From positions 1 to 22,333 of the forward strand of contig JAZDJR010000028.1 in assembly GCA_043803815.1 (NCBI GenBank): a stretch of DNA of 22,333 nucleotides, read 5' to 3'. The notes under the pieces are model-generated. The model was given only the letters and a program-made list of their open reading frames with translations. It made no database searches and was not told where the DNA came from. The position numbers and the translations under genes are program-made. Shown piece by piece: positions 1,145 to 15,519 of the stretch. The first letter of the stretch is position 1, and the number at the start of each line of letters is the position of its first letter. The DNA is from Candidatus Micrarchaeota archaeon. GTDB lineage: Archaea; Iainarchaeota; Iainarchaeia; Iainarchaeales; JAGVWC01.

Positions 1145-3229
1145 TTATCCGCCGCCGGGGTTTTCAATGCAGCGGTATCCAGTGGGCTTGGTTGCGTCTG
1201 CTACGCAGCCCATGTATTGGGTTCGGGAGCAGTGCAGGGGATAACAGGTCCATCCTGCGGTCCGGTCGGCGTCGGAGCAGTATTGGTCACTGGATGAACA
1301 GACCCGGCAGGACAAGGCGTCTTCTGTGCACGGGTCGCTGTCCGGAGAGCCCATGCAGGAGTGCAGGCTTTGCGTGGTGCAGGCTTCCGTGGGCTGTCCG
1401 GGATTTTCGCACACCTTTTGGGTGCATGCGGTTGTGGCGGTGCAGCGCGGAACGGAAACGCAGGTTGATTGGGAAGCGTTGCAGTAATGATAAGTGCAGG
1501 GAGTGTTTTGGCTGGCGCAGGCCTGGCTTTCCGGCGTGGCCGTGGTTTTGCAATAGCATGGTTCGCTGATGGAATCGCTTGGGCAGGTTTCGGTCGGGCT
1601 TGAAGTTTTGACGCAGGAACGCGTATAACAGTAATCGCTTGCTTGGCAAGCGGAAGCGGTTGCTTCGCAGCGGCACGAACCCGGTCCGCTTGGGCAGACG
1701 CATTCATAATTGTAACAGTTGTTGGAGCGCTCTGAGCAGGATGGACTGCATTCGTCTCCGGCGTCATCATCGTCTCCGCTGGAACCAGACCCATCGCCCA
1801 GGCAACCGTTTCCCGTGGGGTCGGGGCAGGGAATTTCCCTGAAAACGCGTTGGGTGTCGCCGGGAAGTGTTCCGCAGCCGGTTTGTCCCGTGCAATCGCA
1901 ATTCAGTTTGAGGGCAATGCGAAGCTGTAACTGGTTGGTTAAATAGCCGAATGATTCGGGCTTGAGGATGCGGCTTTTGGGGTCCTGGCATTTCACGGAA
2001 AAAAGCGCGGTTATTTCGGGGCGCGCGGTCACGTTTTCGTTTTTGTATTGGCCGGAAGGACAGGCTACCAGAATGTCGTCTCCAAGGGCTGGCAGTGCAG
2101 AATCAAAATTGGGTTGGATGGGGTTGCTGGTTGAATTGTCGGAGCCAAAAATCCATTCTGTTCTTGGGGAAGGAACAAGGCTGATGTCGTTGGGGCATTT
2201 CTTGTCCGGAATGATTCCTGATGCAAACCCGTTGTCGAATTCTTCGCTGCACAAAGGAACGGGGCATGCGTATTCCGGGGAAAGGCCTTCCATGTTGCAG
2301 TAGCGGAGTTCCTGGCAGGCCACGCTGCTCACGCATCGCTGTAATCGCTGGTAATCCCAGGTTTCCTTGGATGGGGGAACAAGCGAAACCGTGCATGAAA
2401 TGTTTGAATCGTCTTCGGCGAAGGAATCGTTGAGCCGTTGGACGCTTTTTTTGGCGGCTTCGGTGACCAAAAATTCGAGGGGAAACTGGCTCTTAATCAT
2501 TCCATCCGTAATCAACAATTTGTCCTGTCCAATCGGGGTTTCGCAGGTTGTCTTGGACAATTGGCACGGGGAAAAACCGAGCCAGTTGCACGAGGTTTGG
2601 GAAAATTCTCCGGCATCGTTGTTCATCCATGCCGCGAGTTTTTTGTAAAAATACCATATGCGGTAATCGAGGGAATAGTCCCCGCTTAAGTCCACGGTTT
2701 TCACGGTGTCGCCGTTGGAATATTTCACAAAAAGGTTTTGGACGCGGACAACCGCGTTTTGGTTGGGCAGGTTTTGTTTCAAAAAGTCCACGTTGTGGAT
2801 TTGGGGATTGATAGCGGGGCTGGTTTCGATTCCTTCAAGATGCAGTTTTGCGCTCCAGCCGTTTTCCACTCGGATGTCGCGTTCGCGCCCCAGTTCATCC
2901 AAAAAAACCAGTATTTGGTTGTGGAAAAAGATTTCGCTGGAATCCTGGATTTCTTGCACGTCGGGCGGCAGGGACTTGTTGCAGTACCAGCAGTCCGTCA
3001 CATTGCTGTCGCCGTTTCGCATCAATTGGTCGATTCCCAAAACAATGCCTTTTTCAAGCGAAAAACCGAATTCGTTGCGGATGTCCGCGATTCCGCCTTC
3101 CGTGGGCCGGTAAACCGGGGAAAAAAAAGCGGTTGCAACAAGGACTGTTACGAGTACGACCGCGACTGTCAAAAGCAGTGCGGGCATGTTTCCTTTTTTG
3201 TTGGTTGCCAAGAATCCGCCTCGTACCAT
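1145..3229 (-). CDS. Large pilin-like surface protein with class III signal peptide and Cys-rich C-terminal repeats (putative adhesin)
   Basis: NKKG|NMPALLLTVAVVLVTVLVATAFF gives a basic leader + G + hydrophobic helix. An acidic Gly/Ser linker GDGSGSSGDDDDAGD precedes ~200 aa densely packed with Cys. Alternative start TTG 3211 has GAGGCGG upstream. Confidence 0.75.
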   Translation of the reverse strand: MVRGGFLATNKKGNMPALLLTVAVVLVTVLVATAFFSPVYRPTEGGIADIRNEFGFSLEKGIVLGIDQLMRNGDSNVTDCWYCNKSLPPDVQEIQDSSEIFFHNQILVFLDELGRERDIRVENGWSAKLHLEGIETSPAINPQIHNVDFLKQNLPNQNAVVRVQNLFVKYSNGDTVKTVDLSGDYSLDYRIWYFYKKLAAWMNNDAGEFSQTSCNWLGFSPCQLSKTTCETPIGQDKLLITDGMIKSQFPLEFLVTEAAKKSVQRLNDSFAEDDSNISCTVSLVPPSKETWDYQRLQRCVSSVACQELRYCNMEGLSPEYACPVPLCSEEFDNGFASGIIPDKKCPNDISLVPSPRTEWIFGSDNSTSNPIQPNFDSALPALGDDILVACPSGQYKNENVTARPEITALFSVKCQDPKSRILKPESFGYLTNQLQLRIALKLNCDCTGQTGCGTLPGDTQRVFREIPCPDPTGNGCLGDGSGSSGDDDDAGDECSPSCSERSNNCYNYECVCPSGPGSCRCEATASACQASDYCYTRSCVKTSSPTETCPSDSISEPCYCKTTATPESQACASQNTPCTYHYCNASQSTCVSVPRCTATTACTQKVCENPGQPTEACTTQSLHSCMGSPDSDPCTEDALSCRVCSSSDQYCSDADRTAGWTCYPLHCSRTQYMGCVADATKPTGYRCIENPGGG

Positions 3230-3293: not shown

Positions 3294-6152
3294 TTAGCAG
3301 CCCGTAAAATTCCTGATGTGCTCGGGTTCCGTTGCTCCCATGGCGCTTGGCTGGGTGTGGTTTTTGGAATCGTATTTTTTGCTTTGGATGCTTCCTCCCG
3401 TGTAGCTGTGCGGCAGGTGGAATGCGCCGCTCATGGCGGATGCGCAGGTGCACGAACCAGGAATTTCCATTCCGGGTTGGCACGTGTCGCCGTAAAATTC
3501 CGAATTGGGGACACAGTCCAGGTCGTGCCATTGGTTGACGCAGCCGCCTGGCGTGTCGTTGTTTTCGCTTATCCAGGCTGCTTCGCTGTAATCCTCGCAC
3601 AAGCCGTACGTGTGCCCGAGTTCGTGCACGGAAATAAACGGATAGTACGTGGTGGAGGGATTGAGTGGCAAAAAAATCTGCGTTGCTTCGGTATCGCCGT
3701 ACATGTATGTGTACCCGACTCCGCCCATCAATGATTGCGTGCTGATTCCCACGTTTCTCTGCTGGTTGGTCCAGGAAATGGACGGGTTTGCAATGGTCGC
3801 GACTGCCTTGGCTTTTATTCCGGAAAGGCTTTCCGGCAAGGCGGGGTCGAATTGGTCCGCGCTGAGTGTGGCGCACAAAATCTTGTCGGCTTGGCAGGGC
3901 ATGCTGGCTTTGATTTGCTGGCATTCCGCGTTTGCGGCGTCTAAATAATCCTGGTAAGTGGCATCCCATTCAAAGGGGATGAAATTGTATTGGAGCGTGG
4001 GAATGCATTTTTCGCCGACGCAGTAATCGTCCAGGATTGCACTGCTGTTTTCGCCTTCCTCGTCGGTTACTGTCAGGGTAATGGTGTAATAGGTTTTTTG
4101 TTCTGTTCCGGAAGTATCGGGAAGGTCAATCGAAAAATTGGTGTCCGCCTTGTGGCCGCTGTCATCGGCATAGTCCGGCGTGGTTGCGTCCCTTGGAACA
4201 ATGTCCCATTCGTAATACAGTTGTTCCCCGAAAACCGGGTCGCTGGAATTGGGGTCCGTGCTGTCGCGTCCGTCCGCTATGACCGTGCAGGTGGCAGGGG
4301 AGCCTGCGGACATCGTGCTGCAGTACGGCATGGGGTATACCAATAGTTTGGCTTCGGGTGCAAAGTTGAGTTTTTCGATTTCGGATTCGGCTTTTTCAAT
4401 GGTGTGCGGAGAACGGTTCTTGTACAGCCATAAGCGCGCCGTGGTAAGCCTTCCGTTGCTTAATGGAAGCAGGGTTTCGGTCACGAATCGTTCCTCGTTT
4501 TGTTTTATGGAACCTATTCGAAAATCGATTTTTACCACGTTTATGACAAGGTTTCGCAGTTCCTGCTGGAAAGTATTGACGTCAAAATTGCCGGTCAGGT
4601 TAACCATTTTGCCGCTCGAGTTGGCGCTGGATTTGGCCAATAATTCCATTTGTTGCTGCAAATCGTTGATGCCGTCCTGTGCGTACGAATTGGAGTCGAT
4701 GGTAAATGCTTCGTCGCACGAATTGCGGACGCAGGCCTCGGTTTTTCCGGGGTTTGCTTGGCAGGCCGAACAGCAGGCGCCGTTGAATGAAGAGCCGCAG
4801 TTTGTGGATTGTTCGCAGCAGGGTGCGTGCGTGCCGGATAAGGGGCTGCAATAGGAATAGTTCCAGCATTGGTAGCCCCATTCTGGGCTGTTTGGATCCG
4901 AACAAACTTCTAAACTTGGATTACTGGTGGATGGGTAGCAGGGGTCTGTTTGGATGGGAAAAATGTAAAAGTCCGGGCGTTCCAGGTCTTTAATGATTCG
5001 TGCCGCGTTTTCCACGGTTTGCGCGCTGCGCTGGCTTCCGCAGGAATAGTCCGGGTTTGGGGGCCCGGTTTTTTGTCCGCATACTTCGCAGTAGTTCTTG
5101 TAGTTTTTGCATCGCGTGCAGTAGCTGGTTTTGCCGAGTTTTTCGCAGAGATAACAGTCCATGACCTTGGTGTAATTGGGGTTGGATGTGTACATGGAAT
5201 AGTTGCCGCATAGTTCCGGGCTTGTGCTGTAGGATTGGCATTCGGGTTTAATGCTTGAGCAGTAGGGCATGGTTTCGGTTTCTCCGGGCGGAAGGATTTG
5301 GTATATGGGGCTGTTGCAGCATGCGCTGGAATACAATTTTTCGCAGTATGAATAATCGGGCTTGTTGCAGGAATCGGGTTCGCTTCCCGTGGACAATTCG
5401 TCGCTGATGGGAAAGAAAAAAGTTATCGCTTTTTCAAGCGGGCTGTTGTCCATTTCAATGGCCTTGAATGCGGTTGCCGATGCCCAGTCTTCGTAGGACT
5501 TGATGGGAAGGTTGCGGACGCTTTCGAATTTATAATCCGCGTATACGTTTTGCATTTCAAGTTCGAGGCAATTGATGTGGATTGCTTCGCCGTTGACCAT
5601 GACGGTCCAGTCAAAGCTTTGGCAGTCGAATGCCACGGGGTCGGTGCTTTCGTTGCTTTTTAGTATGAATATTTGGGGTGGTTCGATTTCGATTCCTGTT
5701 CCTTCAAAGCTTTCCATGAGCGGCGGAAGCGTGGTGTGCAGGCTTTCCAAATCGTCTTTGAGGCTTTTGGAGCCGTCCACCAAAAAAATCATGCGCACGT
5801 CGGTTCCTTTGGGTTCGACTTGAAAAAAATAGTTTTCTTTTCCGTATACCGCGTCAAACGCGTTTTCAACGGTTTTTTTCACGTTGACCTGGACAAAGCC
5901 CGTGGTCATCGACGGGTTTTTGTAATAAATGTAGTGGCCGATGAGTTCGCTTAGCGGCATGTTGGAAACGGGTTCCGTGGTTTTGAGTATTCCCACAAGG
6001 TTTTCGGATAATTGGTGGCTGTAAAAAACCGTTTGGCTGGCTTTTGCCTGCTGTTCGAATTGGTTCGCCTGGTTGAAGGTGAGGATGAAATAGGCGGCCA
6101 CGACCAGCGTAATAATCAGGATAAATCCGACAATGTTTTCAAATACGCTCAT
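3294..6152 (-). CDS. 952-aa multidomain surface protein: pilin-like N-terminal helix, vWA domain with Cys-rich insertions, PKD/Ig-like domain, C-terminal zinc metallopeptidase
   Basis: N-terminus MSVFENIVGFILIITLVVAAYFIL. MIDAS-type IFLVDGSKS (aa 126-130) and FFPISDE. PKD-like ADGRDSTDP...LYYEWD...YTITLTVTDEEG. Zincin motif HELGHTYGLCEDY (aa 843 onward) followed by a possible Met-turn SAMS. Confidence 0.8.
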   Translation of the reverse strand: MSVFENIVGFILIITLVVAAYFILTFNQANQFEQQAKASQTVFYSHQLSENLVGILKTTEPVSNMPLSELIGHYIYYKNPSMTTGFVQVNVKKTVENAFDAVYGKENYFFQVEPKGTDVRMIFLVDGSKSLKDDLESLHTTLPPLMESFEGTGIEIEPPQIFILKSNESTDPVAFDCQSFDWTVMVNGEAIHINCLELEMQNVYADYKFESVRNLPIKSYEDWASATAFKAIEMDNSPLEKAITFFFPISDELSTGSEPDSCNKPDYSYCEKLYSSACCNSPIYQILPPGETETMPYCSSIKPECQSYSTSPELCGNYSMYTSNPNYTKVMDCYLCEKLGKTSYCTRCKNYKNYCEVCGQKTGPPNPDYSCGSQRSAQTVENAARIIKDLERPDFYIFPIQTDPCYPSTSNPSLEVCSDPNSPEWGYQCWNYSYCSPLSGTHAPCCEQSTNCGSSFNGACCSACQANPGKTEACVRNSCDEAFTIDSNSYAQDGINDLQQQMELLAKSSANSSGKMVNLTGNFDVNTFQQELRNLVINVVKIDFRIGSIKQNEERFVTETLLPLSNGRLTTARLWLYKNRSPHTIEKAESEIEKLNFAPEAKLLVYPMPYCSTMSAGSPATCTVIADGRDSTDPNSSDPVFGEQLYYEWDIVPRDATTPDYADDSGHKADTNFSIDLPDTSGTEQKTYYTITLTVTDEEGENSSAILDDYCVGEKCIPTLQYNFIPFEWDATYQDYLDAANAECQQIKASMPCQADKILCATLSADQFDPALPESLSGIKAKAVATIANPSISWTNQQRNVGISTQSLMGGVGYTYMYGDTEATQIFLPLNPSTTYYPFISVHELGHTYGLCEDYSEAAWISENNDTPGGCVNQWHDLDCVPNSEFYGDTCQPGMEIPGSCTCASAMSGAFHLPHSYTGGSIQSKKYDSKNHTQPSAMGATEPEHIRNFTGC

Positions 6153-6158
6153 TTTTTT

Positions 6159-7109
6159 TCACTCTTTTTTTGCCCGGGCTAAAAAAACCCATAATGCGAC
6201 AATTATGACAAGGGCTATAATGGAAACCAGCCATACCGGGTTGAATTCGGCTTTGTTTTGGGGTTGCGGCTGGCTTGAAGCGGGAGTATTTTTAATTGTG
6301 CAGTCCGCGGGGCATTTCTGTACGTTTTCGTTTGGTTCGCAGATGCCGTTTTGGTTGCAAACCGGTTGGCAGTCCGCGTCCTGCTCCGAAGAGCAGTCGG
6401 GGTCGCAGCGCAAGTCGCGGACCTTGTCGCAGATTCCGTCCGCTTGGCCCGTGCAGTCGCTTCGGCAGGTTTCAATGTTCTCATCGGCTTCGCACCGGTT
6501 GTTTCCGCAGTTTTGGAATTTTAGTTCGCGGCAGTCCCAGTCCGCGCTTGGCGAGCAGTCCGGGTCGCAGATGCCGTCCGTTGCCTTGTTGCAGTAGCCG
6601 TCGGGTTTTGCCGGGTCGCAGTCGTTTGGGCAGGACAAGGCGGTTTCTGTGGCGTCGCAGTTTGAATCGTTGTCGCAGGCCTTGTTTTTTATTGCAAACC
6701 TGCCGATTTCCTTGGAGTCGTGAAGCGCAACCAAGAAAGCCGCGTTTTCAGAGAATGGCAAAAGCGTGTACAATGTTCGTTCGTTTTGCCCGAGAATTTC
6801 CGTGTTTTCCAAATTGTCCGTAATCAGGTTGAATGTTATAATATATTTGGTTTCGCTGAGGGTTTGGTTGCCGGAGTCCAAAACGCGGATGGAATAATTT
6901 CCGTTGGCAAGCGACTGGTCGGGCGTTCCTTCGATGACGCGGATTCCTTCCAATCGCACGGAGTCCGGGTTTTTTACGAAAACCGTGTTGGCTTCAAAAA
7001 CAAGGGCTTGGGCCGGGACAAGCAGGGTTAAAAGCGCGGTTGCAATCAGGAAAAAGCCGGGTGGGTGCCGGAATTTTTTTTGTCCAACCGATTTCATGTT
7101 TTTGGTCAT
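6159..7109 (-). CDS. Secreted, C-terminally membrane-anchored protein with Cys-rich repeats (316 aa)
   Basis: Sec-type signal FFLIATALLTLLVPAQA|L. Three CxxxxxCxxxExxxxCxxDC repeats (CDNDSNCDATETALSCPNDC, CGNNRCEADENIETCRSDC, CNQNGICEPNENVQKCPADC) alternate with two DGxC...CDPDC...DxDC repeats. C-terminal TM WLVSIIALVIIVALWVFLA followed by RAKKE. Confidence 0.8.
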   Translation of the reverse strand: MTKNMKSVGQKKFRHPPGFFLIATALLTLLVPAQALVFEANTVFVKNPDSVRLEGIRVIEGTPDQSLANGNYSIRVLDSGNQTLSETKYIITFNLITDNLENTEILGQNERTLYTLLPFSENAAFLVALHDSKEIGRFAIKNKACDNDSNCDATETALSCPNDCDPAKPDGYCNKATDGICDPDCSPSADWDCRELKFQNCGNNRCEADENIETCRSDCTGQADGICDKVRDLRCDPDCSSEQDADCQPVCNQNGICEPNENVQKCPADCTIKNTPASSQPQPQNKAEFNPVWLVSIIALVIIVALWVFLARAKKE

Positions 7110-7187: not shown

Positions 7188-7928
7188 CTATGGGGAAGTT
7201 GACGGTTGCAAAACGCAGTTGGTGGTGTCTATGCGGCAGCTTGTTTTGCACAAAAGCGTTCCGCCGGCATAGCGCGAAGAATCATAATCCGTGCATTGGT
7301 TCGAGTATTCGGGCAGCCCAAAATCGGTTGTGTCGCATTCTTCACGGCTGTTTTTGGTTTGGTCTCCGCAGTCCGCTTCCGAATCGTCTTCGGCGGAAGA
7401 ACAGCCAAAGTCCCCTGCGCCGGGTTCCGCGGAATAATCGATTTTTCCGTCCCGGTCATTGTCCACAAAATCGCGGCATTCGGGCACATAGTCCGCCGGG
7501 TTTTGGGCTTTTTTTCCGGAAAAGCAAAGCGATAATTCGGTCAGGCAGCGCGAGCCGTTCCGGTCCTGGGTGATGAGAAACGCGAGTTTTTTCGTGCATT
7601 CCTGCGTGTTCCCGATGGATTGCACAAGGGCGTTGCAGTTGAAGAATTCGAGTTGGCGGATTTCAAAGCCGGAAAGGGACGGTACTTTGTTTAGGCAGTT
7701 GTGGTCAGTGCTTTCTTTTTGGATTCTTGTTTGCGTAAAAGGCCCCATGCAGTTCAAAAGGGAATCCTTGTCGTCTACGGAATCGTGGAACGGTTCGATT
7801 TCTTCCGCCAAAAGGGATTCCCTGGCCGCAACCTGGAAATTGGTGTATACGAGCGTCATGATTGCGGCGACAACGATTACAATGAGCATGAATGCGCTTA
7901 CAATGGAATAGACCCCCTTATGATTCAC
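7188..7928 (-). CDS. Pilin-like protein with class III signal peptide and C-terminal Ca-binding-like / Cys-rich modules (246 aa)
   Basis: MNHKG|VYSIVSAFMLIVIVVAAIMTLVY. DxDxDG loop in ECRDFVDNDRDGKIDY...DFGC. CGD...EECD...GGTLLCKTSCRIDTTNC module. 14 Cys. Confidence 0.75.
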   Translation of the reverse strand: MNHKGVYSIVSAFMLIVIVVAAIMTLVYTNFQVAARESLLAEEIEPFHDSVDDKDSLLNCMGPFTQTRIQKESTDHNCLNKVPSLSGFEIRQLEFFNCNALVQSIGNTQECTKKLAFLITQDRNGSRCLTELSLCFSGKKAQNPADYVPECRDFVDNDRDGKIDYSAEPGAGDFGCSSAEDDSEADCGDQTKNSREECDTTDFGLPEYSNQCTDYDSSRYAGGTLLCKTSCRIDTTNCVLQPSTSP

Positions 7929-8325
7929 GGATTGTCACGGCTCCGTTTTGGGCTTCAATCAGTAAGCGCGAGTGCTCGTTGATTGCAATCGGCCGGTTGG
8001 CGTTCAAAAGTTTTTCGGCGCAATTGGTTTTTTTGCATTTTTTGAATTCGGCTCCGGTTTGGCAGTTGACGCACAGGCACAGTTCTCCCGAATTCCAGTT
8101 CAAATCGCCGCTTGTCAGGGAAAGATTGTAGGGGGAATGGTATTCCCTGGATAGGCAGGCTTCGTTGACGCGCGAACCGATTTCCTGCAGGTCGGTCTGC
8201 ATCTGCTGGACAATGCTGGAACCGGCGAAAAAGTTTTGCAGGTACCAGAACAATAGGATTCCGGTGGCAAGGACGATGCCGACCCACATGATGATTTCGA
8301 TGCTGGAACTAGCCCGTGCAGGCAA
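7918..8325 (-). CDS. Pilin-like protein with class III signal peptide (135 aa)
   Basis: TTG start. MPARA|SSSIEIIMWVGIVLATGILLFW gives RA cleavage with Glu at +5. 6 Cys. Overlaps both neighbours. Confidence 0.75.
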   Translation of the reverse strand: MPARASSSIEIIMWVGIVLATGILLFWYLQNFFAGSSIVQQMQTDLQEIGSRVNEACLSREYHSPYNLSLTSGDLNWNSGELCLCVNCQTGAEFKKCKKTNCAEKLLNANRPIAINEHSRLLIEAQNGAVTIRES

Positions 8326-8746
8326 GCGTTACTCCCTCCCGTTGGCGCAGAAAGGAACATGAAAAGGTGTGCGTGCTGTACAGTGACCGGATGGTTTCCG
8401 ATGTTAAGTCCATGCGGAAATTTTTTCGGGTTGCCGGAAAGGAATTCGAGTCCCAAATCGGGCATTTGCATTGGCGGCACTGCTGTTTTTGGCTGTAGGA
8501 ATAGCAGAGCGCGTTTAGGTCCGTGGAATAAACAGATGAACCGCTGGCCAATGGAACGCTTTGGGACAAGAACTGGTTGACGTCGCTTAGGCAGGTGAAA
8601 TCGCAGAAATTGGCGAGTTGGTTTAAGCTGGATTCCATGGTCATTTGCTTGTCGCGTTCGGTGTTGAATGAAATAAGCTGTGTGACGGCCAAAAGGCCGA
8701 TTAAAACCGCGATTACTCCGAAATACAACCAGACGGTTTGTTCCAT
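8309..8746 (-). CDS. Pilin-like membrane-anchored protein without basic leader (145 aa)
   Basis: MEQTVWLYFGVIAVLIGLLAVTQLI hydrophobic helix, followed by an amphipathic helix ending CDFTC. 8 Cys. Confidence 0.7.
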   Translation of the reverse strand: MEQTVWLYFGVIAVLIGLLAVTQLISFNTERDKQMTMESSLNQLANFCDFTCLSDVNQFLSQSVPLASGSSVYSTDLNALCYSYSQKQQCRQCKCPIWDSNSFPATRKNFRMDLTSETIRSLYSTHTFSCSFLRQREGVTLACTG

Positions 8747-8861: not shown

Positions 8862-9302
8862 TTATTGTACGCGGACAAACGGGTGCAAGGAATTGGGAAT
8901 GCAGTGCATGGACAAGACCGCGGGAATCCCGATTCCGGCTTGTGGTTCCACGACTACGTTGCAGTCCCCGCAATAATTTACGGTGCGGAATTGGTCCAGC
9001 AAAAAAGCGGAATCAAGGTTCACGGATGCGTTCGGAAGCGATTCCAAGTAAGCCGCGCCGCAATCCGTCGCGTTGGCATCCGCCGGGTTTTGGGCAAGGC
9101 AGGTCTGCCAGCAGTCGCTTAACCGGTCCAAAAAAACCGGGAAAGGAATTTTTTCCAGGTTGGTTTCTTTTCCTTCCCCTGTCAAAAGCCGGAAAACGCT
9201 TTCCTGGAACTTTGCAAAATCAAACGAGAATAAAAAAAGGGTGATGATGCCGGCTGCGACAACCGCTACCACTAATAGAATCGTTATTTCAATTGCCTGC
9301 AT
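8862..9302 (-). CDS. Pilin-like protein without basic leader (146 aa)
   Basis: ATG 9302 gives MQAIEITILLVVAVVAAGIITLFLF with Glu at position 5. CWQTC motif, 6 Cys. The start lies 1 nt after the stop of the upstream micro-ORF, which makes the track's TTG 9350 unlikely. Confidence 0.75.
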   Translation of the reverse strand: MQAIEITILLVVAVVAAGIITLFLFSFDFAKFQESVFRLLTGEGKETNLEKIPFPVFLDRLSDCWQTCLAQNPADANATDCGAAYLESLPNASVNLDSAFLLDQFRTVNYCGDCNVVVEPQAGIGIPAVLSMHCIPNSLHPFVRVQ

Positions 9303-9303
9303 T

Positions 9304-9402
9304 CTAATGCGCTCCCATTGCGGAAAAAACGTACAACATGATGGCGGCAAGGGCTAAAATGCCGATTATGATTTCAATGATGAGCGTTAGGGTCTGGTTC
9401 AT
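9304..9402 (-). CDS. 32-aa hydrophobic micro-protein (minimal pilin-like helix)
   Basis: My translation is MNQTLTLIIEIIIGILALAAIMLYVFSAMGAH*. The ATG overlaps the platform gene's TGA (ATGA) and the TAG ends 1 nt before the next ATG, exactly filling the gap. Confidence 0.7.
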   Translation of the reverse strand: MNQTLTLIIEIIIGILALAAIMLYVFSAMGAH

Positions 9403-11276
9403 GAACTGATCACGCCTCTGAACAATAGCTCCGTAAACATGTAATAGCTTATGAACAAAAGGCCCGAATACAAGATGAACGAAACCATGAGGTTTTTGGA
9501 AAGAGTCCGCGCAATTTGGACCCGGTCGGTCCCGAAATTGATGTTGGACAAAAAAATCGACAGGATGGTGACCGTTTCCATCAGGTAAATTCCGACGATA
9601 ATCGCAAGGATGGTCGGGGGAATAATGCTTGTCATATCCACCAACTGCAGGTTTATCGACATGGTTTGGCCGCCTACGCTCTGCAGAATCGACGTGATTT
9701 GCTGCTTGATGAATTCCAGGCTCATGACAATGGCTAAGGCCATGATGGTTGCGGCAACCGCCAATAGCGGGGCCATGACTGTCACGGTAATGTCCACCAG
9801 GCTGCTGGTTTCCACAAGCAGCGTCTGGATGTAACTGTCCAGCTTGTACACGCTGATGGTTTGATTGCGGATCATGCGCGCGCTTTTTGCCGCGTTTTTC
9901 TGGTCGATGTCCGTGAACAAAACGATTTTTTTGAGGGTCTGCACCATGCGAAGCGAAGGCGTCAATGAAAGGATTTTTTTGTCAATGATGTCTTTTAATG
10001 TCATTTTGGTCCGCTCGATGGTCAGGCGGATGTTTTCCAGCATGATAATCGAAGGGTGTTTTGGAAAGCCGTGGCGCTTGTAATCGTCCTGAATATCGAC
10101 CAGTGCGCTTTCCAGGGAGCGGTTCAACGATAAATAACTGGCCAAAATGGACAGGAAATGCGGGATGTCTTCCTCGATTTCCTTGGCTTTTTTCCAGAGT
10201 TTTTCGTGCTGGTTGTAATAAAAAAATGATAATAGCCACGCCGCAAAAAAGAGTCCGAGCACCGCAAACCAAACGTTAATCAGTCCTCCCAAGGAATACT
10301 CGCGGGCAATGGAGGTCTGCGAGGACAGGTCGATTGTCGAGAGGTGCCAGAACGCGGGTATGGCCAAAAAAAGGGCGATTAGTCCTGCGAGGACGAAAAA
10401 AATCCAGGGGGTTTTTTTGTATTCGGGGGAATGCGTGATGTTTACGGTGTTGACTTGCAGGCGGTTGGTTGCAAAATCAAAGGCAAACACGAGTAACAGC
10501 ATGGGAAAGAAAATGTCGTAAATGAAAAAGAGGATTGTGGCGTCCAAAAACTTGGGCAAGAAAATGGTTATCAGGGGCAACAGAATCAGGCTCATCATGG
10601 GCAGCATGACGCCGATTGAAATCAAGGTTTTGGTTTTGTTGGAAAGGGTTTCCGTGAATTTTTTCCCGCTTTCGTAATAATACTGGATGACGGTTTCGAC
10701 GACCTCGTTGATTATTTCTTCGCGTACGTCCGGAGTGCTCATCGCGGCGGTCTGAAGCAGGTTCAGGCCTTTGACGAATTCGGGGTTGATTTGGAGCCAA
10801 AGGGGAATGTAGCGTTCAAAGGCATCGCCCAGGGTAATGTATTCTTTTTTTTCCATTTTTTGTCGGATTTCTCGCAGTTGTATTCCAAGGGTTCCGCTTG
10901 CGGTTTCGCTTATGTAAAAAATAGCGGCTTCCATGCTCGTGTTAAGCGAAACATAATTGGCGAGTTCCAAAATTGTCTGGAGCATTTCGTCGCGGAAGGC
11001 AATTACGCTTTGCGTGAAAAAAATCGAGGTTGCATATATGTATGCGCCAACCGCAAGGATTACCCCGAAAAAGAAAAAAATGTACGAACCCAAAGGAAAA
11101 AAGAACCAGAAAACCATGGAAATTAGGACAAAAGCCAGAAAATAAATCGCGATTCCGCTTAAAATGGCGGCGCTCTTGTAGGGAAACGAAATCAGTTTGA
11201 AGCGTTCGTCCAAAGAGTCCACTTTGGGAAAAAAAGTGAAGGATTGGCCGAGCTGATAAATGAATTCAAAATACAT
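9399..11276 (-). CDS. Type IV pilus / T2SS F-family (TadC/FlaJ-like) inner-membrane platform protein with two fused T2SSF domains (625 aa)
   Basis: Multiple TM segments. Two helical cytoplasmic repeats, EMLQTILELANYVSLNTSMEAAI and EDIPHFLSILASYLSLNRSLESAL, are typical of T2SSF domains. Directly downstream of the ATPase. Confidence 0.85.
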   Translation of the reverse strand: MYFEFIYQLGQSFTFFPKVDSLDERFKLISFPYKSAAILSGIAIYFLAFVLISMVFWFFFPLGSYIFFFFGVILAVGAYIYATSIFFTQSVIAFRDEMLQTILELANYVSLNTSMEAAIFYISETASGTLGIQLREIRQKMEKKEYITLGDAFERYIPLWLQINPEFVKGLNLLQTAAMSTPDVREEIINEVVETVIQYYYESGKKFTETLSNKTKTLISIGVMLPMMSLILLPLITIFLPKFLDATILFFIYDIFFPMLLLVFAFDFATNRLQVNTVNITHSPEYKKTPWIFFVLAGLIALFLAIPAFWHLSTIDLSSQTSIAREYSLGGLINVWFAVLGLFFAAWLLSFFYYNQHEKLWKKAKEIEEDIPHFLSILASYLSLNRSLESALVDIQDDYKRHGFPKHPSIIMLENIRLTIERTKMTLKDIIDKKILSLTPSLRMVQTLKKIVLFTDIDQKNAAKSARMIRNQTISVYKLDSYIQTLLVETSSLVDITVTVMAPLLAVAATIMALAIVMSLEFIKQQITSILQSVGGQTMSINLQLVDMTSIIPPTILAIIVGIYLMETVTILSIFLSNINFGTDRVQIARTLSKNLMVSFILYSGLLFISYYMFTELLFRGVISS

Positions 11277-11286
11277 CGAGTCGCCT

Positions 11287-12954
11287 TTAGGTGGTCACCA
11301 ATTTTTGGATTGCCTGCGTAAACTGTTTTTTGAATTCTTCCTCGTTTTTGGGCAGGGAAACCGGATTCAGCGTGTCAAACAGCCGCGTAAACAGGTTGTT
11401 GGCTTCCGCATTATTGAATGCTTCCAGGCCGTTCGGGGCTCCCTGCAGCAAATTCAAAAATTCCTTTCGGGCCCAGGCACGCAGTTTGATTTCCCGCAAT
11501 GCATCATCATACGCCTTGTACCCCTGGGTCATGGCCAGGATTTCCTTAATCAGCATGCTTTTCCCGTTTAACAAGGCGGAAGTGGGTTCAAGTTCGTCTT
11601 TTTGGGGATTGTACACCAACAAATCCTGGAACACGGGCACATCTTCCCATTCCTTTAACACTTCGGTTACGCGCAAAACCCTTCTTTTGCGGTGCAAGCC
11701 GCTTGCGGACTTGATTTGGTTGATAATTACGATTAAATCCGTTACCTTAAAGCTTCCCTTGGGTACCCCTAAATCGTTGACCACGCGGTCGTATACTCCG
11801 TACGGGTTATCCGCGTGGATTGTTCCCGCAACGGTGTTTGACATGGCTCCAACACGCATGGCCTCGTACAAGACCTTGGCTTCCGTGGAGCGGATTTCTC
11901 CCACAATCAGGACACTATCCCCCAACCGGAGCGACGTACGCAGGCCCTTGTCGAATTTTATTTCAAGGCCCGAAGCCATGAGCGCGCTTCGCACTTTTAA
12001 TGCCAACAAGTCGTATCCCATGGCTTTGAATGCATCCACGGGCAGTTCCTGAGTGTCTTCAATCGTAATCACGCGGTACTTTTTCAGTATTTCAAGCATC
12101 AAGGAACCGAGGAGCGCGGTTTTTCCGCTTCCGCGCGGACCCGCAATCAAAAAGGTTCGGCCATGCGCAATCGCAAAAGACATTAAGCCTGCAAACCATT
12201 CGTTCACCATTTGGTTTTGCATGAACAAGGGAACAGTCCACGGGGTTTCGCGGTGCTTTCGGATGGAATACCCGATCCCGTGGACCGAAAAAGGCGGAAT
12301 CACGGCGGCTACTCTTGCGCGCTGTTTTTCAACGAACAATTCGCCGTCGAGCTGCGGCTGGGCCTTGTTCAATGGTCGTCCCGTATTGATTTTCAGATAC
12401 GTGGCAAGGTAATTCAAAAAATCGATGGAAGGAAAAATGTTGGTCCTGCATTCCTCGAAGTCCTGGTGCACTACGGAAAAACTGTTCTGGAACTCGGGGG
12501 GATTGATGTTGATTTCCTGAACCAAAGGGTCGGACAATAAATAATACAAAATGCCGTGGTTTTTTATCCAGGTTTTCAAAAGCGGGTCGGTAAAATCGTT
12601 TTCCTCGAATTTTTTGTGCAGTTCAAACAACTGGTCCAGGTTTTGGTTCAGGCTTGGAATGTCCATGACATACGTCGGCTGGAGCTTTTGGTTTTCCTGG
12701 ACAATGCGCACCACGGCATCCTGGACGCGGTATGTTTTCAAGACTTTTCCCGAAATCGGCTGGATTAAGATGTCCATAAAAAACGGGCAAACCACGATTT
12801 TTTTTTCATGCAGGTACTGTTCCTTGATGAAAACTTTTCCCTTATATACCACCAAGTCGAGTTCGGGAGTCGGTTTGACGCATGCCCTGCACTGGGGCTG
12901 CGCCAGGTCCGAAACCCCGTCGCAGTTCTCGCAGTCGCGGACCACGTATTTCAT
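11287..12954 (-). CDS. Type II/IV secretion system (VirB11/CpaF/FlaI-like) pilus assembly ATPase with N-terminal CxxC...CxxC motif (555 aa)
   Basis: Walker A AGPRGSGKT, Asp box TIEDTQEL, Walker B LIVGEIRS, His box GTIHAD. N-terminus DCENC...QCRAC. Confidence 0.95.
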   Translation of the reverse strand: MKYVVRDCENCDGVSDLAQPQCRACVKPTPELDLVVYKGKVFIKEQYLHEKKIVVCPFFMDILIQPISGKVLKTYRVQDAVVRIVQENQKLQPTYVMDIPSLNQNLDQLFELHKKFEENDFTDPLLKTWIKNHGILYYLLSDPLVQEININPPEFQNSFSVVHQDFEECRTNIFPSIDFLNYLATYLKINTGRPLNKAQPQLDGELFVEKQRARVAAVIPPFSVHGIGYSIRKHRETPWTVPLFMQNQMVNEWFAGLMSFAIAHGRTFLIAGPRGSGKTALLGSLMLEILKKYRVITIEDTQELPVDAFKAMGYDLLALKVRSALMASGLEIKFDKGLRTSLRLGDSVLIVGEIRSTEAKVLYEAMRVGAMSNTVAGTIHADNPYGVYDRVVNDLGVPKGSFKVTDLIVIINQIKSASGLHRKRRVLRVTEVLKEWEDVPVFQDLLVYNPQKDELEPTSALLNGKSMLIKEILAMTQGYKAYDDALREIKLRAWARKEFLNLLQGAPNGLEAFNNAEANNLFTRLFDTLNPVSLPKNEEEFKKQFTQAIQKLVTT

Positions 12955-14473: not shown

Positions 14474-14965
14474 TTGGAAATGCCTATCAGTATTGTCATT
14501 ACCTTGTTTGTGGTCGTGGTCGTCGGCGTTTTAGTAATCCTGTTTGCGCGCACGCAGGTGGAAAGCGCCCAAACCTCGCTCGAAGGCTTTAACCCGAATG
14601 AGACCGAGCAAAAAAACCTGGTTTTTGAAATCGACCAGTTAAGCGCGGTGCAGTTGGCGACCGGAATCAAGGAATGCTTTCGTCGGTATGGCCAGACGCT
14701 TCAAAGCGAGATGTGTTCGGTTTTTCACATCAGCAATTCAAGCCATTCGTTTGCTTTGGACGCAACCCAAAAAACGGCTATTTATGGCGAGCTTAGGAAC
14801 TATCCGGAATTGTACAACACGGATTCTTCCATGGGGCCGTCTGGCAGCACGGTAAGCGATGCCGAAATCGACAAATATACCGGAATTACGGTTACTTCAA
14901 GTCCATCCACGAGTTTTTTTGTGCGGTGGAATGCAGAACAAGGAAAAGTGGAGGTGACTACATGA
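14474..14965 (+). CDS. Pilin-like protein without class III leader (163 aa)
   Basis: TTG start after GGGGTGA. MEMPISIVITLFVVVVVGVLVILFA is paralogous to the predicted mature N-terminus of the next gene. 2 Cys. Confidence 0.8.
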   Translation: MEMPISIVITLFVVVVVGVLVILFARTQVESAQTSLEGFNPNETEQKNLVFEIDQLSAVQLATGIKECFRRYGQTLQSEMCSVFHISNSSHSFALDATQKTAIYGELRNYPELYNTDSSMGPSGSTVSDAEIDKYTGITVTSSPSTSFFVRWNAEQGKVEVTT

Positions 14966-15519
14966 ATCAGAAAGGAATGGAAATGCCTATCCAGATTTTT
15001 ATTACCCTGTTTGTTCTTTTGGCGGTTGCCATACTCGTGCTGACACTCGTTCAGCAGCAGTTTTCACAGAGCACCAGCGAACTGGACAAGCAAAAACGCG
15101 AACAGGAATTCCAGCAGTCTGTCAGCCTGGCCCAATCGACCTGCCAGAACCTGTGCAAGGACTCCTGTTCCAGCGCGCAGCGAAAAGCCAGTTACTGCAT
15201 TTCGCGGGTAAACAATCTTCCCCTCAACCTGTCCAAGGACGAGAACAATTACGACGAAACGTACTTGGCCGGAACGGGTATCTGCGAAGACAGCGTCTAC
15301 TGCGCCCAGATGTATGACTGCGATTGCGGCGGTTCCAGATTAACTATGGCCGCGTGCAAAACCCTCCTGTGCGACTATTGGAAAAGCATAGGCGACGCTG
15401 CAAGTGCAACCGCAAAGATCAAGCAGTTCATCAAACCCGGCTCGTGCTATACTGTCGGCAGCATGCCAAACCATTGGTATTCCGCTTCGCCTTACGGCGG
15501 AGACCCGTTGTGCTCGTAA
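14962..15519 (+). CDS. Cys-rich pilin-like protein with class III signal peptide (185 aa)
   Basis: Perfect RBS GGAGGTGA (14950-14957). ATG 14962 overlaps the upstream TGA. MNQKG|MEMPIQIFITLFVLLAVAILVLTLV. 12 Cys. Confidence 0.85.
   Translation: MNQKGMEMPIQIFITLFVLLAVAILVLTLVQQQFSQSTSELDKQKREQEFQQSVSLAQSTCQNLCKDSCSSAQRKASYCISRVNNLPLNLSKDENNYDETYLAGTGICEDSVYCAQMYDCDCGGSRLTMAACKTLLCDYWKSIGDAASATAKIKQFIKPGSCYTVGSMPNHWYSASPYGGDPLCS

Follow-up and report, generated by a model that had tools for sequence, protein, structure and literature searches.

Does a pilin-like protein of a small-genome archaeon carry both an adhesin and a zinc peptidase to the tip of a type IV filament? The question is raised by P0001, an open reading frame (ORF) of 952 amino acids (aa) in a stretch of 22,333 nucleotides (contig JAZDJR010000028.1 of assembly GCA_043803815.1, from a Candidatus Micrarchaeota archaeon; we call the whole stretch the window). 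An initial annotation, made from the letters alone, had described P0001 as a fusion of a pilin-like helix, a von Willebrand factor type A (vWA) domain, a PKD-like spacer, and a zinc metallopeptidase. Our analysis points to a similar answer: within the type IV filament (T4F) system of a small-genome, DPANN-type archaeon, P0001 probably serves as a modular, pilin-like subunit or adhesin. Its domain architecture and its conserved metal-binding and catalytic residues are directly visible or strongly supported. The features of P0001 are as follows, in window coordinates:

3294..6152, minus strand: the whole ORF P0001, present in single copy, with a pilin-like helix and vWA, PKD-like, and metzincin-like peptidase modules
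5985..6152, minus strand: predicted N-terminal alpha-1 helix, aa 1-56 (AlphaFold model, hydropathy, and alignment of 95 relatives)
4524..5813, minus strand: vWA-fold domain, aa 114-543, split by two Cys-rich insertions (VIA-align of the model)
5763..5777, minus strand: DxSxS motif (DGSKS, aa 126-130) of the metal ion-dependent adhesion site (MIDAS) type, with partners D222 (in DW) and D251 (in ISDELSTGS)
5028..5381, minus strand: insertion 1 of the vWA domain, Cys-rich, aa 258-375 (Cys density; low AlphaFold confidence at aa 278-335)
4674..4940, minus strand: insertion 2 of the vWA domain, likewise Cys-rich, aa 405-493 (low AlphaFold confidence at aa 411-455 and 481-493)
4008..4364, minus strand: PKD/Ig-like beta-sandwich spacer, aa 597-715, which includes YYEWD and YYTITLTVTDEEGENS (profile and model)
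3297..4007, minus strand: metzincin-fold, zinc-peptidase-like domain, aa 716-952 (model, Foldseek, VIA-align, and profile)
3588..3626, minus strand: zinc-binding motif HELGHTYGLCEDY, aa 843-855, with His843, Glu844, His847, Gly850, Glu853, and Asp854
3426..3440, minus strand: first Met-turn candidate, SAMSG, aa 905-909, which aligns to the S[IV]MG of relatives and lies in a low-confidence stretch of the model
3333..3347, minus strand: second Met-turn candidate, SAMGA, aa 936-940, modeled at higher confidence and followed by a helix at aa 942-950

The gene and its motifs

P0001 occupies exactly the positions given in the initial annotation, but on the minus strand: it begins with ATG and encodes 952 aa plus a stop codon (3294-3296), whereas the plus-strand translation of 3294-6152 has many stops. 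It is present in a single copy in a genome of 1.08 Mb (36 contigs, 85.6% complete) that carries the archaeal markers NMD3 and beta-CASP RNase. The protein begins with MSVFENIVGFILIITLVVAAYFILTF, and glutamate is residue 5 of the unprocessed protein. A longer leader is impossible because an in-frame TGA lies 9 nucleotides 5' of the ATG. The DGSKS motif stands behind a hydrophobic strand, MIFLV. There are 42 cysteines, mostly in aa 258-493 and in the C-terminal domain. Hydropathy analysis identifies one transmembrane (TM)-like segment, which is N-terminal, and there are 13 N-x-S/T sequons; these features fit a protein that would be extracellular apart from its first helix. Scans of the window for tRNAs and for Rfam families found nothing.

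To judge whether the motifs could arise by chance, we made 20,000 composition-preserving shuffles of the protein. The pattern HE..H..[GN]..[HDE] appeared in one shuffle and the pattern [VILFM]{3,4}D.S.S in 123, and no shuffle had both. When the window is translated in all six frames, either pattern is found a single time, within P0001. Thus, the DGSKS and HExxH motifs of the initial annotation are present and are not chance matches.

Relatives and recurrence of the fusion

We searched for the family of P0001 by running HMMER exhaustively over 1.84 billion representative proteins. This identified 119 proteins, including the query, at E ≤ 0.001; 62 of these were found at 1e-10 and 9 at 1e-30. 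A word-index homology search returned the query alone or, when given alignment A1, just two of the input proteins. The part shared across the family is mainly aa 1-280, with an additional stretch at about aa 497-580, and most members have DGSxS at the fixed position 126. Because members vary from about 370 to 1,900 aa, the family has a conserved N-terminal core with variable C-terminal extensions. The public names of ten representatives are absent, "hypothetical protein," or "PKD domain-containing protein," and the one member with a named organism is from a Candidatus Diapherotrites (DPANN) archaeon.

The N-terminal module is joined to a C-terminal HExxH domain in 16 representatives, 10 with the HExGHTxxxC[DE]xY type of motif and 6 with the HExxHxxGxxH type. 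A hidden Markov model (HMM) of the domain also detects members from outside its training set that have HExxH (P0114, E = 1.7e-20; P0045, 5.9e-8; P0085, 1.3e-7; and P0071, 3.5e-5). About 79 of the 95 aligned family members are without any peptidase. The initial annotation had called this architecture unusual: the pilin-vWA-PKD-peptidase order is indeed present, but it is recurrent in the family rather than unique to P0001.

A quick maximum-likelihood tree, built on 95 rows from their first 300 aa, puts P0001 in a clade of 13 rows with an SH-like approximate likelihood ratio test (SH-aLRT) support of 98. Six rows of this clade have the peptidase, one has a degenerate copy, and six are without it; P0010, which is among the last six, stops within the domain's first 37 positions and so looks truncated. 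Further peptidase-bearing members are scattered across the tree, so the module has been gained or lost several times.

The peptidase also occurs by itself. Ten relatives align to the peptidase region alone, and eight of these are stand-alone proteins of 171-354 aa, six of which have a CxxC and an N-terminal TM helix. In the stand-alone homologs P0098, P0103, P0110, P0113, P0115, and P0118, each of about 300 aa, the CxxC comes just before the TM helix, and there is a Pro/Thr-rich linker. P0098 is from a metagenome-assembled genome (MAG) of an Anaerolineales bacterium, so the peptidase family is common to bacteria and archaea.

With P0001 as a protein query, homologs were found in 5 of 60 related genomes. 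The family profile gave some match in 51 of 215 genomes of a phylum sample, many of them to the PKD-like part only, and at E < 1e-50 it matched 14 genomes of that sample, including the one with P0001. The PKD-like part of the profile (positions ~454-536) matches repeats in many giant ORFs (1,000-2,270 aa) of related genomes; counts from the full profile therefore overstate how widespread the vWA-pilin core is.

The vWA domain

We modeled aa 1-590 with AlphaFold, using an alignment of 95 sequences (mean predicted local distance difference test score [pLDDT] of 77.8; predicted template modeling score [pTM] of 0.80), and compared the model to 48,161 representative chains with VIA-align. This tool cautions that Z scores under about 8 are common background. 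The resulting list is dominated by vWA domains and I-domains, with Z = 9.0-11.2 and 151-221 residues aligned. It includes SpaC (6m48; Z = 11.2, 189 residues aligned, root mean square deviation [rmsd] = 3.7), BatB (3ibs; Z = 11.2), the A1 domain of von Willebrand factor (7eow; Z = 11.1), the ArnB paralog VWA2 (Z = 9.7), and PilB, which is a modular pilin (7b7p; Z = 10.2, with an rmsd of 3.4 over 183 aligned residues). The pilus adhesins Mfa5 (Z = 9.8), RrgA (9.3), and GBS104 (9.1) are also in the list. Since these Z scores exceed the background and the matches are mutually consistent, they support a vWA domain with its Rossmann-like alpha/beta fold.

By sequence, no VWA family of Pfam matches P0001 at E ≤ 0.1, and a direct search of P0001 against the Protein Data Bank (PDB) found nothing at E ≤ 10. 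The family profile has a weak match (E = 0.2-0.3) to the beta1-MIDAS-alpha1 part of the I-domain of integrin alpha-L. The residues of the putative metal site are conserved across the 95 relatives: D126 is present in 88, S128 in 82 (T in another 6), and position 130 is S in 66 and T in 23, while D222 and W223 are each present in 91 and D251 in 85. The conserved D222 seems to take the place of the usual MIDAS threonine. The insertions have conserved features as well, with conserved Cys columns in the family consensus at insertion 1 and C461 of insertion 2 conserved in 91 of the 95 relatives. Fold and residues together back the vWA domain that had been proposed from the sequence, with a putative metal site of the MIDAS type.

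The metzincin-like domain

The AlphaFold model of aa 586-952 has a mean pLDDT of 65, with values of 70-90 over most of aa 715-875 and the last helix. Foldseek gave 29 PDB matches for this model at E ≤ 0.001, and all of the matches listed are metzincins: they include acutolysin (1qua; E = 2.1e-4), ecarin, fragilysin, BF3526, archaemetzincin (2x7m), ADAMTS4, and BaP1 (TM-score of 0.48 by target). The VIA-align comparison has catalytic domains of the metzincin type in rows 2-32 (Z = 7.3-11.9), and the alignments span model residues 133 to 366/367, so that they reach the C-terminal helix. The matches include atrolysin (1dth; Z = 11.9, 164 residues aligned, rmsd of 3.5), ADAM8 (11.6), BFT-2 (11.4), archaemetzincins (11.0 for 2x7m, 10.0, and 9.6), BF3526 (10.1), ulilysin (9.9), IgAse (8.7-8.8), and matrix metalloproteinases (~7.3); snapalysin (1c7k) has Z = 6.8. 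For the ESM Atlas's own model, the structural neighbors are clusters of M66, M11, M64, M54, and reprolysin peptidases (TM-score of 0.43-0.62 by query). A sequence profile of the domain, when compared to the PDB, matches archaemetzincin 2x7m with E = 3.5e-4, over DRxxGxT...HELGHTFGL, as well as ADAM17 (~0.03) and snapalysin 1c7k (0.12). The predicted structure thus has a metzincin catalytic fold with an active-site helix and a C-terminal helix, and the zincin fold on which the initial annotation had made its peptidase depend is in place. Membership in the metzincin clan is supported by the modeled fold and partly by the motif.

In the zinc motif, Glu853 is at the position of the third ligand, Asp854 adjoins it, and Tyr855 comes next; the initial annotation had pointed to this Glu-then-Asp order (CEDY), and it is as described. 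We aligned the domain from 21 sequences, including P0001. HExxH is intact in 20 of them, the exception being P0011, which has HALGY. Counted from the first His, position 11 holds Asp in 17, Glu in 3 (P0001, P0005, and P0018), and Ser in 1, so it is acidic in 20 of the 21. Tyr855 is invariant, and Gly is present at +8 in 12 sequences, including P0001. At least 90% of the relatives conserve the Met of an S[IV]MG turn, and the family has the signature C[DE]EY..W..QN..GGCxNxYP..C as well as, in its long forms, a terminal Cys. Thus, both a candidate third ligand and a conserved HExxH, on which the peptidase assignment had also been made to depend, are found across the family. On the modeled fold and the conserved residues, we regard the fold and the catalytic dyad of the P0001 domain as well supported and its proteolytic activity as plausible.

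P0011 itself is a protein of 881 aa with the full architecture. With HALGYTFGLCSEY at the zinc motif, it has lost both the catalytic Glu and the second His, as well as the acidic ligand; judging from these residues, P0011 is a naturally occurring pseudo-peptidase that shares this scaffold.

Which metzincin family is closest? The initial annotation had compared the end of the motif to the xDEY of family M64. Igalysins (M64) have HExxHxxxGxxD, with an extra residue before the Gly (PMC12237041), but HELGHTYGLCE in P0001 has its Gly at +8, not +9, which is the canonical metzincin spacing HExxHxxGxx(D/E). We therefore rejected membership in M64. The Pfam model for this family (PF09471, Peptidase_M64) does not match P0001, and on 6 of 10 relatives it gives E = 0.0063-0.046, below the cutoff. 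More broadly, no Pfam model of the families M12B, M10C, M54, M7, or M64 reaches its cutoff on P0001 or on these 10 relatives. Pfam's Peptidase_M7 gives E = 0.0037-0.068, also below the cutoff, on 5 of the 10. Snapalysin (M7) has HExxHxxGxxD in a minimal catalytic domain of ~130 aa, and this type of motif is found in the aligned relatives of P0001. The motif of archaemetzincin (M54) is HExxHxxGxxHC, with His as the third ligand. P0001 has Cys at +10 and Glu at +11, so we rejected membership in M54 too. Archaemetzincin is likely a distant relative of the P0001 domain, and it is the closest family by sequence profile.

The PKD-like spacer

The segment between the vWA and metzincin-like domains resembles PKD and other Ig-like domains. 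On P0001, Pfam's K319L-like_PKD gives E = 0.06, below the cutoff of 27 bits, and on the relative P0037 it gives E = 9.5e-5, also below the cutoff. The family profile matches solved PKD domains (2c26, E = 3.3e-4; ColH 4u7k, E = 1.2e-3). In the model, where the spacer has a pLDDT of 50-80, it resembles FN3/Ig-like sandwiches (Z = 6.6-7.2 in VIA-align, with 84-96 residues aligned). Profile and model together give moderate support to a PKD/Ig-like domain. The PKD-like strand pattern of the initial annotation is weak in P0001 alone, but it is stronger in the family profile and as an Ig-like sandwich in the model.

The N-terminal helix

Type IV pilins have a trademark helix of about 50 residues that is hydrophobic and has an acidic residue at position 5 (PMC8179133). 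In the model of P0001, aa 2-56 form a continuous helix, with mean pLDDT of at least 92 in each 10-residue block of aa 1-60. The predicted alpha-1 helix is therefore of the ~50-residue, continuous kind. Its hydrophobic part is aa 7-26, about 20 residues near the N terminus, and the acidic residue is Glu5, with no basic leader before it. Of the 95 aligned relatives, 90 have their Met1 in one shared column, 74 have G, A, or S as residue 2, and 70 have an acidic residue 5 (E in 40 and D in 30).

A minority of the more distant family members have canonical leaders that end in [KR]G and are followed by x-x-F-E, such as MKG-QAFE and MRKG-IVFE, and these tie the family to class III signal-peptide proteins. 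When the two forms are aligned, the initiator Met of the leaderless form is at the -1 position of the leader-bearing form. Removal of the Met would give the same mature end as cleavage of the leader, and the leaderless proteins may mature in this way instead of by prepilin peptidase. Other leaderless proteins are encoded nearby: the families of P0001 and of its neighbor p162 both start with M-x-x-x-E and a hydrophobic helix, without a basic leader. Similar starts recur in related operons (for instance, METIE.. and MQAIE..). The neighbors pil197, P0003, and P0004 have short class III-type leaders with [KR]G. Thus, leaderless pilin-like proteins stand beside canonical ones in one operon.

The operon

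The minus strand of the window encodes, in order, two coiled-coil proteins, an ATPase, a polytopic membrane protein, p162, p145, p135, P0003, P0002, P0001, and P0004:

12951-14324, minus strand: two proteins (192 and 260 aa) that are coiled-coil-like and have no clear family, upstream of the ATPase and kept at this place in the related genome G025
11287..12954, minus strand: ATPase of the type IV filament (FlaI/TadA/VirB11 family), first of the operon's machinery genes (Pfam, NCBIfam, and synteny)
9399..11276, minus strand: polytopic membrane protein of 625 aa, hydrophobic, with no match in Pfam or NCBIfam
8862-9302, minus strand: p162, pilin-like, which starts with MQAIE and is leaderless with Glu5
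8309-8746, minus strand: p145, pilin-like
7918-8325, minus strand: p135, pilin-like
7188-7928, minus strand: P0003, pilin-like, with MNHKG and then a hydrophobic helix, 14 Cys
6159..7109, minus strand: P0002, Cys-rich (20 Cys), which has a signal peptide and, at the C terminus, a TM anchor; it stands between P0003 and P0001 in this genome alone among the loci compared
1145..3229, minus strand: P0004, the downstream partner, 694 aa with 49 Cys and a class III-like N terminus (..KKG and a hydrophobic helix)
14474-14965, plus strand: pil163, a putative major pilin, which starts with MEMPISIV
14962 to 15519, plus strand: pil197, a putative major pilin, with MNQKG and then MEMPIQIF, after a ribosome-binding site (GGAGGTGA)

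The ATPase is recognized by Pfam's T2SSE (E = 3.9e-18) and, with scores under the equivalog cutoffs, by the NCBIfam models for the TadA family (1.3e-32) and FlaI (2e-30), and it is 67% identical to the syntenic gene of G025. The polytopic protein is 55% identical to its syntenic counterpart in G025. From its position alone, we take it to be the platform protein (FlaJ/TadC-like). With that assignment, P0001 is encoded together with both a T4F ATPase and a platform protein, as expected for a pilin. The leader of pil197 (MNQKG|MEMPIQIF) is a textbook example of a short class III leader; pil163 and pil197 are likely the major pilins. P0002, P0003, and P0004 do not belong to any family in Pfam or NCBIfam.

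The arrangement is conserved in related genomes. G025 has the ATPase, the polytopic protein, p162, homologs of both putative major pilins, p145, p135, P0003, and a P0001 homolog of 591 aa with no PKD-like or peptidase part; there, the homologs of pil163 and pil197 are inside the operon, between p162 and p145. G002 has a pilin, p145, p135, P0003, and a P0001 homolog of 645 aa that is directly followed by a P0004 homolog. The order p145-p135-P0003-P0001 is thus conserved in both genomes. In G029, a P0001 homolog of 701 aa, with the peptidase, is also directly followed by a P0004 homolog. It is thus directly observed or strongly supported that the operon is conserved and that it joins P0001 to a T4F ATPase, a polytopic membrane protein, and another five to seven pilin-like genes; together with the confident 55-residue helix, this operon backs the pilin-like N terminus of the initial annotation. 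The claim of a pilin-type Glu5 holds in part: the residue is there, but no canonical class III leader precedes it, and it is numbered from the initiator Met.

P0002 and P0001 share a reading frame and are separated only by TGA-AAA-AAA (window 6153-6176, minus strand). We considered whether read-through of the TGA might fuse the two proteins. The A-rich GAGTGA stretch between them resembles a ribosome-binding site for P0001, and no homolog of P0002 was found in the four related loci compared, so judging from the sequence, we consider read-through unlikely.

Comparison with characterized systems

The closest characterized system is PilB of Streptococcus sanguinis (7b7p). As described in PMC8179133, PilB has a pilin-type helix that is followed by a bulky vWA domain with a MIDAS-type motif, it is encoded in a type IV pilus (T4P) operon, and it is a proposed tip-exposed adhesin, all of which resemble our reading of P0001. 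PilB differs in being bacterial and bimodular, with a 7-residue class III leader that is cut by PilD and with no peptidase. The archaeal P0001 has no leader, two Cys-rich insertions divide its vWA domain, and PKD-like and metzincin-like modules are present in addition. A direct PDB sequence search detected no similarity between P0001 and PilB.

Fusions of a bacterial pilin module (IPR012902) to S74 or M26 peptidases have been listed as uncharacterized predictions (PMC8179133). These also would present a peptidase on a type IV filament. However, they are bacterial, were found through InterPro, and have a serine (S74) or M26 peptidase, whereas the peptidase-like domain of P0001 is archaeal, metzincin-like, and unannotated, and it stands behind a vWA domain.

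Large vWA proteins that are encoded with minor pilins include PilY1/PilC and TadG, which are described in the context of adhesion and surface sensing (PMC8179133; PMC4858521). A TadE/TadG cluster is among the structural neighbors of P0001 in the ESM Atlas, with TM-scores of 0.35-0.39, which we treat as a lead only. PilY1, with its beta-propeller at the C terminus, is not a pilin; a peptidase is absent from both PilY1 and TadG, and we found no sequence relationship of P0001 to either. SpaC, RrgA, GBS104, and Mfa5 have vWA domains with insertions and are located at the pilus tip, where P0001 may be located as well. They are assembled by sortase or type V systems and have neither a pilin alpha-1 helix nor a peptidase.

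For the C-terminal domain, the metzincin families M12B, M10C, M54, M7, and M64 share the beta-sheet, the backing helix, the active-site helix, the C-terminal helix, and HExxHxxG. The relatives of P0001 are like the snapalysin-type metzincins in their S[IV]MG turn and in their third ligand, which is mostly Asp. P0001 differs from the known families by its Glu at this position, and it has neither the igalysin spacing nor the His-Cys of archaemetzincins.

Among the proteins that reviews of archaeal T4Fs describe are some that resemble adhesins, one adhesin of the PilY-like kind, and pilin-like proteins that lack a class III signal peptide (SPIII) motif (PMC4858521; PMC13705601). In the passages of these two reviews that we covered, there is no mention of a vWA pilin or a metallopeptidase fusion. 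We also found no description of a pilin-vWA-metzincin protein in the literature that we covered; the supplementary list of architectures in PMC8179133 is outside this scope and may hold a similar entry.

We therefore describe P0001 as a putative trimodular, leaderless, archaeal modular pilin with an unannotated metzincin-like effector, which extends the known theme of modular pilins. Modular pilins account for the ability of simple type IV filaments to acquire new functions. The pilin modules that have been characterized so far are adhesive (vWA or lectin), and peptidase modules are database predictions from bacteria.

A proposed role and its alternatives

In the mechanism that we propose, the helix of about 55 residues would anchor P0001 in the membrane and would then bring it into the filament, together with the neighboring minor pilin-like proteins, at the start of assembly. 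P0001 would most likely be at or near the tip of the filament, because a head of 950 aa could not be packed in the shaft. Tip placement via early assembly has been argued for modular pilins (PMC8179133). The vWA site would use a bound metal ion to attach to a ligand, either protein or glycan, of another cell or a surface, the PKD-like spacer would hold the peptidase beyond the adhesin, and the zinc site would cleave surface proteins at the point of contact. Both pilus display and proteolysis are steps that we infer, and so is the tip pilin that couples adhesion to proteolysis, which the initial annotation had suggested. This small-genome archaeon probably lives on other cells, and a host envelope protein would be an attractive target. 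Pili-like connections and thin filaments are reported from DPANN co-cultures in PMC11329633, with no molecular link given there.

How small-genome archaea of the DPANN type recognize and breach host cells is largely unknown, and P0001 is a concrete, clonable candidate for a contact-dependent protease. The family also offers a natural series of Asp, Glu, and degenerate third zinc ligands for enzymology.

A number of observations weigh against this reading of P0001. At the cutoffs of Pfam and NCBIfam, no module of P0001 is recognized. For the N-terminal model, Foldseek found nothing at E ≤ 0.001, and its weak rows are SpaC, integrin I-domains, and collagen VI, mixed with unrelated folds. The other adverse points concern either the activity of the peptidase or the place of P0001 in a filament, and each is given with the alternative to which it belongs.

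First, the metzincin-like domain of P0001 might be dead or very slow and serve as a binding module, which would be compatible with display on a pilus. We consider this a serious possibility, if not the likely one. The third-ligand position has Glu rather than His or Asp, which places Glu853 outside the metzincin consensus HExxHxx(G/N)xx(H/D) as given in PMC12237041. That source also describes Asp as the third ligand of snapalysins and thuringilysins. In our alignment, just 3 of the 21 sequences have Glu, and the Gly at +8 is replaced in 9 of them by Y, E, S, A, K, or R (or, in one, by N). P0001 scores 2.3e-47 on the HMM for the domain, where others score 1e-52 to 1e-75, and it is the second lowest of the 22 proteins in the training set (P0019 is lower). 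The stretch from aa 877 to 914 is poorly modeled, and the Met-turn is ambiguous: the alignment favors SAMSG at 905, and the better-modeled candidate is SAMGA at 936 (pLDDT of ~79-87). Finally, P0011 retains the domain after losing HExxH. Yet His843, Glu844, His847, Gly850, and Tyr855 of P0001 are all intact, and there are carboxylates at both positions 11 and 12. Glu at position 11 recurs in P0005 and P0018, which have an intact HExxH, so it is probably a tolerated variant rather than a sign of decay.

Second, P0001 might be a membrane-anchored adhesin or protease that is located outside the filament, on the cell surface or at the base of the pilus, with its helix as an uncleaved signal anchor. 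(The vWA protein TadG was reportedly once proposed to sit at the pilus base.) P0001 starts with MSVFE, without the short basic leader ending in Gly or Ala that an A24 prepilin peptidase would cut and without a canonical prepilin cleavage site, and it has a single TM-like segment. Archaeal T4F loci are known to hold pilin-like proteins that lack an SPIII motif and whose role is open (PMC13705601). However, the confidently modeled helix of 55 residues far exceeds a membrane span, relatives conserve an acidic residue 5 and a small residue 2, true class III leaders occur in distant family members, and the gene stays among the pilin-like genes of a T4F operon. We therefore judge a location outside the filament to be unlikely.

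Two other results bear on assembly into a filament. Prepilin peptidases (PF01478, Peptidase_A24, and PF06819, Arc_PepC) were not found in the genome with P0001, which at 85.6% completeness is weak evidence. PF01478 is present in all 60 of the relatives searched, with 1-4 matches each, so its absence is probably an assembly gap. For the same reason, we rejected the idea that the family is leaderless because the lineage lacks prepilin peptidase. Also, we predicted a complex between P0001 (aa 1-590) and P0003 (aa 1-140), which gave an ipSAE of 0.60 (0.62, 0.60, and 0.60 in the individual runs). The best of three controls was 0.00, the runs agreed on at least 94% of contacts, and the partner's pLDDT was at least 78. 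The mark for this score was reached by 58 of 80 solved complexes and by 2 of 110 mismatched pairs, and scores of 0.60 or less were seen in 7 of those 80 as well as in both of the mismatches that passed. The prediction used alignments that we built ourselves, and both chains have hydrophobic helices, which the controls probably did not have. We regard the predicted contact between P0001 and P0003 as weak support for assembly into the filament.

A bolder version of the filament-tip reading is that the tip works as a hook and a cutter: in these episymbiotic archaea, the vWA domain would grip a protein of the host envelope, and the distal metzincin would digest the host's S-layer locally, which would open the contact site that cell-cell bridging requires. 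The families of P0001 and p162 would then be "leaderless pilins" from which the Met is removed, which would make the tip complex partly independent of prepilin peptidase. Removal of the Met is proposed because most relatives have a small residue 2. We think it improbable that all of this holds.

Third, the protease might act on the cell's own surface or pilus proteins, by maturing or shedding P0002, P0004, or other pilins or by releasing its own vWA head. P0001 is tightly linked to other large, Cys-rich, secreted proteins, and other peptidases have been linked to archaeal T4P loci (PMC4858521). However, the roughly 79 members without the peptidase keep the same operon partners, which makes a housekeeping role in maturation unlikely, and the stand-alone, TM-anchored peptidase homologs have no pilin module; one of them, P0098, is from a bacterial MAG. 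Overall, we find a self-directed protease quite improbable.

Fourth, the motifs might be chance matches in a noncoding or miscalled ORF, for which the lack of Pfam and NCBIfam matches is the only point in favor; this is refuted by the 119 representatives (including the query) that match at E ≤ 0.001, the confident structure models, the shuffles, and the conserved synteny.

Other observations

Matches to the T2SSE family of ATPases were found at five places in the genome (on contigs C31, C26, C30, C18, and C28), including frames of 1,045 and 1,303 aa. This suggests that the organism invests in several type IV filament or secretion-type machines.

An ORF of 242 aa at positions 89-817 of the window (minus strand) matches the first half of prolyl aminopeptidase (positions 2-157 of 307 in TIGR01249; E = 1.6e-53, below the cutoff). 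It has an N-terminal extension of 72 aa. Judging from this partial match, it may be a truncated or split gene for an alpha/beta-hydrolase.

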